A DNA stretch of 64,000 nucleotides from Promethearchaeia archaeon (GTDB lineage Archaea; Asgardarchaeota; Lokiarchaeia; Sigyniarchaeales; SOKP01): the NCBI GenBank assembly GCA_029856145.1, contig JAHQWK010000008.1, positions 1 to 64,000 on the forward strand, in the 5' to 3' direction. Below are positions 7,623 through 57,956 of this stretch, piece after piece (positions within the stretch are counted from its first letter, which is position 1; every line of letters begins with the position of its first letter). The position numbers and the translations under genes are program-made. The notes under the pieces are model-generated. The model searched no databases. It saw nothing but the letters and a program-made list of their open reading frames with translations, and was not told the origin of the DNA.

Positions 7623-8369
7623 ATGATTGTAAAAAAGATAATATATTTAGATAGTAATATAAAAGTTTGTTGTGTCAAGACAGAAAAGGCAGAGGTCGAA
7701 AAAATCTCTCCTGAGCTTGTCCAACATGTATTTTTTTGTTATAGTATAGGATTGATAGATAATCCTGCAAGTAGAGTGAAAGAAACAATCAAGATTGAGA
7801 AAAAAGATATTATTTTCGTTAGGAATTATATAGTTATTTCCTTTAATTTTGATGGTCTTCTTAAACCAGAGGAATGTGAGTTCTCCATCCATTCAATAAC
7901 GTTCTTTCTGAGAGATAATCCTCGATTGGAGGTACATATTGGAAAAACGGAAGCGTTTAAACATATCGAATCAGACCCAGTGATTATTGAGAATTTACTC
8001 AAAAGAACTAAAAAACCTTCAGGTTCAAATCACATACCTCACAATAAAAACAAGAATTTACCAAATAAAGTAAACGCTAAATCCGTCTTAAATGAACCAA
8101 AAGTGAATGTTGAAGATATTAAGCATTTCATTGATTCATATGAAAAGTTTAAGACTCAATTTAAAGACTCTGAGATACAAGAGCTTTTGGAAAATAAACC
8201 AAGTACTATGGACTTTAATTTAAAGAGCTTCGGAATTTCACTTCTGTGCAAACTACTTCTACTGATAAAGTCTGTAAATGAGTTAGTGGACAATGATTTC
8301 CAGAAAGATCTCCACCAATTTTTACGAGACCAAATACTCAATAGATTGAAAACCGAGGTGACCGCGTAA
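7623..8369 (+). CDS. hypothetical protein, first gene of the primase operon
   Basis: 248-aa ORF; its 3' end carries the GAGGTGA SD of the AEP gene. Confidence 0.75.
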   Translation: MIVKKIIYLDSNIKVCCVKTEKAEVEKISPELVQHVFFCYSIGLIDNPASRVKETIKIEKKDIIFVRNYIVISFNFDGLLKPEECEFSIHSITFFLRDNPRLEVHIGKTEAFKHIESDPVIIENLLKRTKKPSGSNHIPHNKNKNLPNKVNAKSVLNEPKVNVEDIKHFIDSYEKFKTQFKDSEIQELLENKPSTMDFNLKSFGISLLCKLLLLIKSVNELVDNDFQKDLHQFLRDQILNRLKTEVTA

Positions 8370-8370
8370 G

Positions 8371-10707
8371 ATGAGCATATATTATAAGGAAAAGATAAAA
8401 TACATTACAGACGATCTAATGCTGCAAAAATTTGATTTATATGCAACGTTCAATAAATTAAAGGAACTACTACAGGATGAGGATCACCCTTATTACTGGA
8501 ATAAATTGTATAGACTTAGAGTTACTATTCAAATTCAGACTCCTGACTATAATCTTTTGGACCAATTTTATCAGCAAGGAATCTTCAAAAGCCATGAATT
8601 CGAAGCTATCGTGGACATGGTTAAAGCAAAGGTCAAGAGTAATATCACTATTCTCACTAACACATTAGATTATACTCTCAATCAATACAGCTCCTTAAAA
8701 AATTCACTTTCTATTAAACGCTTTGAGGCTTTTGAGAAAATGAAAGGGAAGCGATCTGTTCGAATTGATAATGTAGAGTTAATCTTTAACCTAAACAAAT
8801 TAGACTTAAAAGATGTAGTTGCATTACTAAAATGGTGGAATGTCGATGATTTTTCATTTTCAAAACAGATTCTTCTGAACATAGAAGGAGAAATCAGAGG
8901 CACTTCTAAATTTGGAAAAATCACCACTTTTGAAGTGAATAAAAGACCTGTACAAGAGATTGGGAATTTTCTTTCTCATAAAGACCTTGAAAGAACTAAT
9001 GAATTCTTAGGACATGAAAGATACTTTGAGGTGTTAAAAACGTTCATGTTTCCTGAAGGATTCGAAAATCAAGCAGAGATCACCCTTGATATTGTTAAAG
9101 ACGAAATATATCCTCAGAAGCGAAGAGCCGTATCGACTAATGGCTCATCAATGAAATTCCATCAATTAATAACTAAGCTAACTCCTCATAAAGAGTATCA
9201 AAAAATCATAAAAGAAAATAGAATTGTAGGAATATACTGTTCAGTAAAGAGTGTAAATGACGATCTTCTATACTTTTTAATTGATATTGACGTTCCCCCA
9301 TTATTTTATAACTTATTCCCCCACCAGACAGTATGGACGCTCACATTAAATATTGCGAAATCCATTATGAGAACCGCTTCTCGATTTGGACTACCTCCAT
9401 TTAAAGTCTCATTTTCAGGCGCGAAAGGTCTCCACTTACTTGCGAAATTAGAAAATCCAAAAGTTGTCCAGGATGTGGAGCAGTATGTAAATTTTTCAGA
9501 ACTTTATCGGTTCTCCCTTCTCCCCGGCATGAAAACGCTGAAGAAAGAGAAAACTAGCAGCTTAAATGACAAGTTTAAGTTTGCTAAATCTCTTCTTCAG
9601 TCATTATTGCTATATACAGTATATAGGGAAGGGATCATCATACCTACTGAAATTATCAGAAAATTACGAATAGTATATCCTTATCAGTTATTTCGGTTAT
9701 CTGTGGATGCGAAAAATCGTTTAGCAATACTTCTTGATTGCTCTTCCATGAGTAGGGGAGTATTTCGCCTATGCAGCCCACACCCTTCTTCAAAATTGGT
9801 ATCCATTCCGATTTCAGATATGAGAACAAATAAAGTCTGTGAAGAATATCTGGACTATGAGAAAGTACGTGAAGATGCGAAGCTCGAAAATGTTATTGAT
9901 AAGTTTAACAAGGATGGTATTGAACTATTTTTACAAAAACCAGCCACTATTACCAGAGATCATATTAAAAATCTTTTACGCCCTGATAAACTGCTTCCTG
10001 CTTTTGCCACATTACTCAGATTCGGAACCATTTATTCTATAATGCGTTCGCCAAAAAGTTTTAGCTTCTGGTATCGATTTTTTGAACTAAGGAGTTTTTA
10101 TGCTTATATCCATGACCTAGTAGAATCGTATGATGGTAAGGTGCTAAAAGATTTTATTAATTTTATTAGGAATATGGCCTCCAGATTGAGGGTAGAAAAT
10201 AAGGATCAGCTGCTTAACTTAGTAAAATTACATTTAGAACATAAGAAGATAAGCTTTCCTCTCTTTAAACACTGGTTAAATACCTATTATTATATTGAAT
10301 TTTTCTTTAATCTAAAATCCGAAGTATTTTTGAGAGAGAATGAAGAGAGTCTAATTGAACTATTTCAAAATGAAGTTCAATTCCATAACTTTCTCTCTCA
10401 AGCTCAAGAAATATTTAATATTGCGGTGTATACCATTTCAAGTCAAGTGATTTTAGGGGATAATGAAGATCTTACAAAAGAACAAATTGATTGTGTGAAT
10501 GAATTTTACAATGACTCCACTTCGTTAATTCATCTTGTACGATATTATTTAAGCGAGCTTACTCACGATCCAGCTTCTGAAGGAAATGAAGGACGATTGA
10601 TTAGGACTATTCATTTCATTAGCAAACTCTATTTTTCTTCCATAAAATTTATCCGTGAATTCTACAGTTTAGGTGAGCAATCCAAGGTAGTTGAAATATG
10701 GAGATAA
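8371..10707 (+). CDS. archaeo-eukaryotic primase (AEP) / primase-polymerase family protein
   Basis: Motif I FLIDIDV, motif II SFSGAKGLHLL, motif III LLDC..SRGVFRLCSPHP; long N- and C-terminal extensions. Confidence 0.85.
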   Translation: MSIYYKEKIKYITDDLMLQKFDLYATFNKLKELLQDEDHPYYWNKLYRLRVTIQIQTPDYNLLDQFYQQGIFKSHEFEAIVDMVKAKVKSNITILTNTLDYTLNQYSSLKNSLSIKRFEAFEKMKGKRSVRIDNVELIFNLNKLDLKDVVALLKWWNVDDFSFSKQILLNIEGEIRGTSKFGKITTFEVNKRPVQEIGNFLSHKDLERTNEFLGHERYFEVLKTFMFPEGFENQAEITLDIVKDEIYPQKRRAVSTNGSSMKFHQLITKLTPHKEYQKIIKENRIVGIYCSVKSVNDDLLYFLIDIDVPPLFYNLFPHQTVWTLTLNIAKSIMRTASRFGLPPFKVSFSGAKGLHLLAKLENPKVVQDVEQYVNFSELYRFSLLPGMKTLKKEKTSSLNDKFKFAKSLLQSLLLYTVYREGIIIPTEIIRKLRIVYPYQLFRLSVDAKNRLAILLDCSSMSRGVFRLCSPHPSSKLVSIPISDMRTNKVCEEYLDYEKVREDAKLENVIDKFNKDGIELFLQKPATITRDHIKNLLRPDKLLPAFATLLRFGTIYSIMRSPKSFSFWYRFFELRSFYAYIHDLVESYDGKVLKDFINFIRNMASRLRVENKDQLLNLVKLHLEHKKISFPLFKHWLNTYYYIEFFFNLKSEVFLRENEESLIELFQNEVQFHNFLSQAQEIFNIAVYTISSQVILGDNEDLTKEQIDCVNEFYNDSTSLIHLVRYYLSELTHDPASEGNEGRLIRTIHFISKLYFSSIKFIREFYSLGEQSKVVEIWR

Positions 10708-57458: not shown

Positions 57459-57509
57459 CCAAATCACTAATCCCAAACACCCCAAATATTTAAATAGCAA
57501 AAGAGATAT

Positions 57510-57956
57510 ATGATTCTTATGAGAGATAAACGAGCAATTATTATCAAGAGCCCGCGATTACAGAAAATTAGGAACAATTTAAGGCTTCTGTTGCTTAAAG
57601 CGGCAAGAACAGAACGAGAAAGATTATATAAAGAATGGAGGGGGTTTCTGGTTGGCTCAGAGGGTAAAAGGCACTCCATAAAAGAATTTTCTCCAGATAA
57701 ATTAGAACAGTTCAGAAATCTTCAAGAGCAAGAAGAAATCTTGAAAAGCATATCAGATAGATCTATTTGTAAATGTATTGCGTGCGGGAAAGCGGATCGG
57801 GACATGGTGTACAATAAGGCTTATGATGCGTGGTACTGCACAGATTGCTATGGGTTGGAGCGGTCGGTTGCTCAGAGGCGGACTAAAACGCGAGAGAGAG
57901 GATCGAAGTCATGCGAAGAGAAAGCCCTCGAGGAGCACTCCAAGACTTTTCTGTAG
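57510..57956 (+). CDS. small basic Zn-finger protein (candidate immunity/partner of the giant protein)
   Basis: CIACGKADRDMVYNKAYDAWYCTDC; 51 nt downstream of the giant ORF on the same strand. Confidence 0.7.
   Translation: MILMRDKRAIIIKSPRLQKIRNNLRLLLLKAARTERERLYKEWRGFLVGSEGKRHSIKEFSPDKLEQFRNLQEQEEILKSISDRSICKCIACGKADRDMVYNKAYDAWYCTDCYGLERSVAQRRTKTRERGSKSCEEKALEEHSKTFL

Follow-up and report, generated by a model that had tools for sequence, protein, structure and literature searches.

What kind of DNA surrounds, and possibly carries, a gene of 38,211 nucleotides that ends close to the lokiactin gene of a Loki-type Asgard archaeon? The gene lies in a window of 64,000 nucleotides (contig C7, positions 1-64000, beginning at a contig end) of the metagenome-assembled genome (MAG) G000, which comprises 3.55 Mb in 32 contigs at about 30% G+C. 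Throughout, Gnnn denotes genomes, Cn contigs, Lnnn loci and X1-X10 metagenome runs, the last examined at contig level. A sequence-only reading had flagged positions 7623-57956 of the window as a new mobile element in which replication, partition and regulation genes and two surface proteins accompany the giant gene. Our analysis favours a wider view, to which we give a probability of roughly 60%: the flagged segment would be the conserved core of a larger island, 105 kb long, plasmid-like and integrated in the Lokiarchaeial chromosome.

The limits and the 50-kb size first proposed had to be abandoned. Inserted DNA extends from base 1 of the window, with a further 47 kb on other contigs, to position 58193. 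The window thus holds the right 58.2 kb (1-58193) of a 105,202-bp island, and the remainder lies on contig C18 (143725-155263) and on two metagenome contigs that cross an assembly gap. Nearly half of this repeat-bounded unit consists of defence genes: the left 48 kb form a defence arm and the right 57 kb the core, which runs from about window position 1000, at or before an NYN-domain gene, to 58193, past the small gene o57510. To the right of lokiactin (58273-59418, -; PF00022, 1.5e-132), the host flank, gene order is kept in the congeners G005 (a closed genome), G006, G012, G014 and G015. The left 58 kb of the window is absent from all five, and in these empty sites lokiactin runs straight into homologues of the C18 sequence that ends at C18:143724. 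The insertion site is the spacer between a leucine-rich repeat (LRR) gene and the lokiactin 3' end. A 16-bp direct repeat, ACAACAATAAAAAAAA, sits exactly at both breakpoints, with its left copy at C18:143709-143724 and its right copy, an attR or target duplication, at 58194-58209; each empty site holds one copy. In a chance control, 16 nt or more were shared by only 7 of 20,000 random pairs of AT-rich 60-nt windows, and no inner copy with up to two mismatches was present within the island. These data show an insertion with its repeat and its empty sites; the island is accessory, precisely bounded and non-syntenic.

A window that begins at a contig end, in a MAG with 5.4% contamination, could in principle reflect a chimeric join, in assembly or binning, of foreign DNA to the lokiactin contig. 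The contigs that close the gap make this very improbable. The first is 99.96% identical to C7:1-5326 and extends 11.6 kb beyond it, and its last 141 nt (the assembler k-mer) are the first 141 nt of a 141.8-kb contig. The latter crosses the left arm, then the left repeat (attL), and then reaches host DNA. Both derive from the same population, being 99.96-100% identical to the MAG. The right (attR) junction is bridged by independent contigs from two runs, 34 kb and 11 kb long, which take in the giant 3' end, o57510, the repeat and lokiactin, and the same junction is found in G107. In run X10 lokiactin was covered and the giant gene was not, and a 972-nt contig of run X6 departs from the window left of position 58275.

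In two more congeners, G002 (C16, L012) and G018 (C129, L010), the sequence also breaks at this A-rich site behind lokiactin; the far-side DNA is different again there, and the site may be a recombination hotspot. The site is also occupied by a unit made of o57510 and the exchangeable tail of the giant gene, both described below, in G107 (as a remnant, with the actin gene duplicated) and in G150, which belongs to another genus; either the site has been targeted repeatedly or the insertion there is old. In G107 (C48, L113, 2620-6490) the two lokiactin copies, 99.5% and 93% identical to that of G000, are separated by 1.6 kb next to the element remnant, and an att-like A-rich sequence follows each of them. 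If the insertion were old, the whole region might be a vertically inherited family locus that has been lost many times, the repeat being a by-product of deletion or duplication in the A-rich lokiactin terminator. Such a history would agree with the tail and o57510 beside lokiactin in G107, of the same genus, and in G150, and with the presence of the membrane-proximal module of the giant in 50 of 134 family genomes (and virtually nowhere else). It sits poorly, however, with the precise single-repeat empty sites of five congeners, with homologous elements at other sites, and with the divergence of the element proteins, at 45-66% identity compared with 80-100% for host proteins. We consider it improbable.

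The coupling of a primase-polymerase of the AEP type and a ParB-type protein with giant genes, on which the sequence-only reading had built its element, recurs well outside the window. AEP/ParB genes co-occur with giant homologues on G000 C28, G100 C95, G077 C23, G011 C50, G131 C23 and C24, a G237 contig and locus L150. AEP-ParB thus stands upstream of a giant at no fewer than seven further loci, in the same order and orientation, at different chromosomal sites and in two genera, which shows that the gene order recurs at other sites. The fullest case is G100:C95, with o7623, AEP, o10698, ParB, o16195m and a giant of 12,779 residues; elsewhere AEP, with or without ParB, precedes giants of 6,008 residues (G077), at least 3,661 (G011), 13.9 k (two ORFs in G131) and at least 10,443 residues (G237). 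A decayed second element in G000 itself (C28:1-9753) retains the C-terminal half of AEP, o10698 and a 2,044-residue giant remnant. The order NYN-o7623-AEP-o10698-(TFB-like)-ParB does not vary among 34 metagenome loci, and one 57-kb metagenome contig continues into o16195m and a giant N-terminus. The neighbouring host DNA resembles C14 in G100, G017 and G237, C32 in G077, and C9 around 533 k in G011. G237 is assigned to another class and had been considered as a case of inter-class transfer; its contig flank is 68-70% identical to G000 C14, and we now regard it as probably a misbinned Lokiarchaeial contig.

Upstream of the giant, the genes o7623, AEP, o10698, TFB-like and ParB-N are co-oriented and form the replication, partition and regulation block that had been described. 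The usual first gene of the core codes for an NYN-domain protein (1863-2384, +; PF01936, E 1.9e-22), which is found upstream of o7623/AEP also in G077, G011, G017, G131 and many metagenome loci. The AEP operon itself begins with o7623 (7623-8369, +), a 248-residue protein that is kept beside AEP and had no Pfam, PDB or PHROG match. The AEP protein (8371-10707, +; 778 residues) is divergent, with a core at about residues 225-540 and, behind it, a C-terminal domain made of helices. It gave no Pfam match itself; 5 of 10 members of its family matched PF01896/PF21686 below the gathering score (best E 0.0018), a profile search against PDB returned only PriS (E 0.016), and 50 of 50 database homologues are unannotated Asgard proteins. 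In an alignment of 10 homologues, later extended to 32 sequences, D305xD307, S349-G350-x2-G353-x-H355, D456, R466 and H471 were invariant. An AlphaFold (AF2) model was obtained with a pLDDT of 88 and a pTM of 0.87. When it was searched with Foldseek, the top 50 matches were all AEP enzymes, with E-values from 3.7e-4 and TMt up to 0.59; they include 6sa0, 2fao (TMt 0.59), the LigD polymerase domain, Prim-PolC and Pri1 of human or yeast. The model shows an AEP fold, and the catalytic motifs together with the predicted fold uphold the original assignment. AEP occurs in 17 of 161 class genomes and 22 of 400 phylum genomes, almost all of one family. Congeners with 100% identity in lokiactin share only 45-58% in AEP.

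The third gene of the operon, o10698 (10698-11354, +; 218 residues), overlaps the AEP stop and always follows AEP. Its DxE and HNxNC motifs are conserved. A (DEDD) exonuclease assignment was dropped, as a PDB profile search was empty and support went no further than these motifs. The operon is preceded by a leader (7411-7613, +) in which positions 7602-7613, directly ahead of the ATG at 7623, are complementary to 7411-7423, with a TATA-like TTTAAATA at 7561. As judged by eye from the alignment, the complementarity of the two segments, which lie about 190 nt apart, is kept with differing sequences in 6 of 6 loci; RNAalifold predicted no pairs on the leader alignment.

Behind the operon follow a TFB/cyclin-fold-like protein of 127 residues (11992-12375, +; weak PF21913) and the ParB protein. 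The former is 30% identical to a host TFB-like gene product on C22 and lies between o10698 and ParB in many loci. The island also codes for a second TFB-like protein (L121:1-1032 joined to the end of L101), 344 residues long and with a Zn ribbon at its N-terminus; it is 52% identical to the host gene product on C22, and the small o11992 protein resembles its cyclin-fold part. The ParB-N protein, of CTPase type (12607-13974, +), matched PF02195 with 30.9 bits (cut-off 26.3) and phrog_3264 at 2e-22; it has a GFRRFSAA box (GxxRxxA) and a Cys-rich C-terminus. These matches show a ParB domain. ParB follows AEP in 13 of the 17 metagenome loci with room for it. No ParA/MinD was detected among the upstream genes in Pfam, PHROG and NCBIfam scans.

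The giant gene (19248-57458, +) is, as described in the sequence-only reading, one unbroken ORF; it codes for 12,736 residues and takes up 38,211 of the 50,334 nt flagged, or 76%. A basic N-terminus is followed by about 13 transmembrane (TM) helices, which form one cluster at residues 190-470 (nt 19815-20657) and another at 986-1205 (nt 22203-22862) with a basic loop between them, and then by an acidic, S/T/Y-rich ectodomain of about 10,500 residues. After a hydrophobic helix (residues 11,709-11,727; nt 54372-54428) come a conserved junction region of about 285 residues and the tail; by hydropathy and composition the C-terminal 1,000 residues or so are basic. In Pfam the giant matched only a LamG/ConA-like domain (residues 1790-1937; nt 24615-25058), besides weak Ig-like and H-lectin matches. 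A self-comparison gave no internal repeats at E 1e-5, and neither PDB sequences nor the ESM Atlas gave a match. The 12,779-residue giant of G100 is colinear with that of G000 at 38-66% identity. Family ORFs of 9-20.6 k residues occur in Lokiarchaeial family f1 only, the sole family in which the giant family was found among 400 phylum genomes (with one 901-residue query). The longest, of 20,625 residues (G095:C13, about 84.8-146.7 k), lies beside host (C32-like) genes with no AEP/ParB upstream. We propose that the ectodomain is displayed on the cell.

The C-terminus of the giant differs from gene to gene. The four giant-family genes of G000 share 86-92% identity as far as the motif ...DAVKGILES[RK]HQ and are unrelated from there on, and a different small gene follows each, which shows the tails to be polymorphic. 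Besides the C28 remnant, two of the giant-family genes of G000 are cut by contig ends (C8:32333-42463 and C9:644444-649471; at least 3,377 and at least 1,676 residues). The tail of the window's giant is an exchangeable basic module of about 725 residues (giant residues 12,012-12,736; 55281-57455, +) made of helical bundles and a beta-beta-alpha unit. The same type of tail is present on other giants, as orphan ORFs of 277-1,441 residues and as metagenome fragments. A tail model reached a pLDDT of 85.6, and H552, H553 and H576 are the sole invariant residues. They lie in the beta-beta-alpha unit (nt 56925-57026; strands 549-553 and 568-572, helix 573-582 in the model). This unit was considered against the His-Me finger (HNH) nucleases, in which a beta-beta-alpha unit bears a catalytic His and metal ligands; it matched no family, and a fold search with the whole tail returned only generic helical bundles (Z at most 8.2; Foldseek E at least 0.07).

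Immediately after the tail, o57510 (57510-57956, +) codes for a basic Zn-ribbon protein (CxxC...CxxC) of 148 residues, the predicted partner of the tail. Its position after the tail is conserved: it follows this tail type in G107, G017, G128, G135, G078 and G123, and remnants that consist of an orphan tail with o57510 are present in G017 and G107. The identities of the two proteins track each other, with 66% in o57510 against 63% in the tail, 49% against 62%, 35% against 30% and 34% against 27%. A complex model of tail residues 480-725 with o57510 gave an ipSAE of 0.83, compared with 0.00 for the best control. The ipSAE mark used was reached by 58 of 80 solved complexes and by 2 of 110 mismatched pairs, a calibration that is roughly valid here, where our own alignments were used. 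At least 71% of the contacts agreed between runs, the pLDDT of the partner was at least 78, and the predicted interface comprises residues 547-551 and 573-582, around the conserved His. Altogether, these results support, as far as models can, an effector-immunity or effector-regulator pair formed by the tail and o57510, in which the tail may be a delivered nuclease-like effector. The payload had been read as a cell-contact weapon or adhesin, and the idea of a weapon gains from the exchangeable tail and its cognate small partner. In another genome (G013:C35, L084, 16411-19124), five consecutive o57510-like fragments lie upstream of another giant, of 11,803 residues. The run looks like an array of partner or immunity genes.

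Between ParB and the giant lie the two sorted surface proteins that had been noted, both carrying [AI]PGY, a TM helix and K/R tails. One is a NosD/right-handed beta-helix protein with a PGY-CTERM anchor (14596-16077, +). The other, o16195m (16195-17886, -; 563 residues, weak Loki-CTERM match), is an anchored surface protein and a constant divergent neighbour of giants, adjoining them in G086, G123, G131 (twice), G013, G100 (twice), G107 and G237. A small putative winged-helix regulator (18195-18527, -), with weak Rrf2/PhaQ-type matches and a homologue in the G237 contig, and the 96-residue o18965 (18965-19255, +) follow. The latter abuts the giant start and precedes giants also in G123, G131 and G081.

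Further features were observed at the left end of the window. Upstream of o1464/NYN, a hairpin (1133-1268, +) has an 18-bp stem that encloses about 95 nt and precedes a T-run (-40.9 kcal/mol, z -3.97). Its single homologue found lies at the left edge of the G011 element, with two stem positions changed on both sides. A 529-residue, family-less protein (2464-4053, -) has at least eight paralogues in G000 (C7:138 k, C25, C6, C15, C11, C2 and others), and members of its family are found beside the G100 and G086 elements or break into them; a small mobile cassette and a candidate recombinase are both conceivable readings. A 277-residue protein (6287-7120, +) matched phrog_25239, of unknown function, over its full length (E 3e-37).

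The left arm (C18:143725-155263, L096, L106, L121) contains a complete type 1 BREX system (BrxE, A, B, C, PglX, PglZ, BrxL), a Cap17-like protein, MNT, a DinG-like helicase, a 581-residue RNase HII fusion and a 499-residue Cas10-palm/Csm1_B/mCpol protein with no CRISPR array. The MAG as a whole has no CRISPR arrays; the sole periodic repeat found (C25:31.4 k) is a coding LRR-type tandem repeat.

Does the island then move by itself, as the term mobile element implies? Its accessory, non-syntenic nature, the empty sites and the 16-bp repeat bear out one half of that claim; the other half found no backing in a recombinase or a raised copy number, and a series of observations tells against an autonomous element with a delivered effector. 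Pfam and PHROG scans over the 105 kb, in which many ORFs are family-less, detected no integrase, transposase, Cas1 or relaxase, and ARAGORN found no tRNA in the window and the C18 tail. The ends share only a chance-level match of 9-10 nt and no terminal inverted repeats; PolB gave no match either, and the traits of casposons and self-synthesising transposons (Cas1, PolB, inverted repeats) are missing. In run X1 the element contig had a depth of 14.6, compared with 18.6-19.4 for the flank, and a scan of IMG/VR with the AEP profile returned no relative. By tetranucleotide deviation the non-giant parts of the island are host-like and the giant gene is the sole outlier; as the latter is probably due to amino-acid bias, composition is uninformative on origin. 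In G011 the core has its left edge directly ahead of NYN, and the moving unit may accordingly do without the 48-kb defence arm. Same-family giants in G095, G058 and G123 (C77) have no AEP/ParB within 20 kb upstream, with host genes directly upstream in G095 and G058, and the giant is thus not strictly an element payload. The tail matched no known toxin family, with no Pfam match in 30 tail homologues, and a basic tail behind a hydrophobic helix fits the cytoplasm as well as it fits a delivered effector. With no integrase, tRNA, inverted repeats or circular form found, the movement of the unit by itself is something that we only infer.

Several of these points would also be explained if the giant locus with its tail and partner (as a chromosomal polymorphic surface/effector locus), the AEP-ParB cassette (as a dispensable, domesticated plasmid remnant) and the BREX arm (as a third insertion) were three separate things piled up in a flexible-genome hotspot where non-essential genes gather, and exchanged among strains when homologous recombination acts on conserved flanks, lokiactin for example. 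The solo giants beside host genes in G095 and G058, the failure of the island scans to find a recombinase and the end of the G011 core at NYN are consistent with this, as are the rearrangements or other DNA at the lokiactin 3' site in G002, G018 and G107. Nevertheless, only one pair of the 16-bp repeats encloses the full 105 kb, none being present inside it, and chance piling-up would not produce the same AEP-ParB-giant order and orientation at seven or more loci in two genera. We therefore regard such a piling-up as possible but somewhat unlikely.

For the integrated, plasmid-like island that we favour, the parts of the core may be put together as follows. The genes o7623, AEP and o10698 would form a self-regulated replication operon, in whose leader the upstream segment can pair with the ribosome-binding-site region. 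The TFB-like and the CTPase-type ParB proteins would serve transcription and segregation of the free replicon, and we infer for AEP and ParB a role in replicating and segregating an excised form. Two anchored surface proteins and the giant membrane protein, with its ectodomain of about 10,500 residues on the cell, would make up the rest, the tail module being held by the product of the next gene, o57510. The left 48 kb would be accreted defence cargo. A bolder version is unlikely in our view: the island would belong to a family of self-replicating integrative Lokiarchaeial elements in which an unrecognised recombinase or the AEP operon inserts the DNA behind conserved genes such as lokiactin, and the giant would be a contact-dependent effector of about 12,000 residues with exchangeable nuclease-like tips and cognate immunity genes. 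If true, it would be an archaeal, element-borne counterpart of bacterial contact-dependent inhibition (CDI)/Rhs systems, and would equip the element and its host for kin discrimination or killing at the long protrusions of Asgard cells.

To our knowledge, very few mobile elements other than viruses have been described from Asgard archaea, and among them only aloposons centre on giant genes; our literature search found no description of a Lokiarchaeial element such as this one. The island adds a precisely bounded 105-kb example from Lokiarchaeia with an empty-site control, and links an enigmatic Asgard-specific primase-polymerase cassette to ParB and giant genes. It also provides evidence of polymorphism in the proteins of 11-20 k residues of a single Lokiarchaeial family, whose tails can be swapped and have partners of their own. 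The insertion site beside lokiactin offers a simple marker with which the element can be followed in cultures and metagenomes.

Integrated archaeal plasmids, and integrative elements of the pTN3/pT26-2 type with AEP primases, have a recognisable integrase, often of SSV type and targeting tRNA genes, and usually a helicase. The island resembles them as a chromosomal island with att-like direct repeats, an AEP replicase and cargo; it differs in that an integrase and their helicase were not found in it. Its AEP has the fold and the three catalytic motifs of the LigD polymerase domain, Prim-PolC and PriS, but at 778 residues it carries extra N-terminal and helical C-terminal domains, stays below the Pfam threshold and is restricted to Asgard archaea.

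The giant invites comparison with polymorphic toxins such as CDI/CdiA, Rhs and MafB (Zhang et al. 2012), of which archaeal cases have been noted (PMC6393860). Like these, it is a very large surface protein with a conserved body, a sharp junction motif and unrelated C-terminal tips. The small downstream gene specific to each tip, the remnants of orphan tips with small genes and the binding of tip and partner predicted by modelling are further likenesses. In contrast to them, no known trafficking, pre-toxin or toxin domain was recognised in it; its tips, of 565-725 residues, are basic and stand behind a hydrophobic helix, and about 13 N-terminal TM helices anchor the protein.

The closest comparison is with aloposons, integrated elements of Heimdallarchaeum whose bulk is giant genes with a small conserved gene block in front (Wu et al. 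2022, PMC8813620). The same authors raised the possibility of a mobile-element location for other giant genes of Asgard archaea that are unrelated to these (PMC8813620), and aloposons are said to encode distantly related ParB-like proteins (PMC11529989). The island shares with them the integrated state in an Asgard chromosome, the dominance of a giant gene and the conserved block upstream. The aloposon traits that the sequence-only reading had found lacking here are indeed absent: there is no tRNA, no MinD/ParA match and no second giant in tandem. Whereas aloposons carry tandem giants of 3,000-6,000 residues (Otus, Ephialtes), the island has one giant of 12.7 k residues. It occupies the LRR-lokiactin spacer, whereas aloposons lie at a tRNA downstream of the giants. 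Finally, the four upstream genes of aloposons include a MinD/ParA-like ATPase, for which the island gave no match; it has the AEP operon. The view that this is a distinct type of element and not an aloposon holds on layout, site and gene content, the giants not having been compared with the Otus and Ephialtes sequences. These features set the island apart from aloposons, and no giant-gene element of its kind has been described so far.

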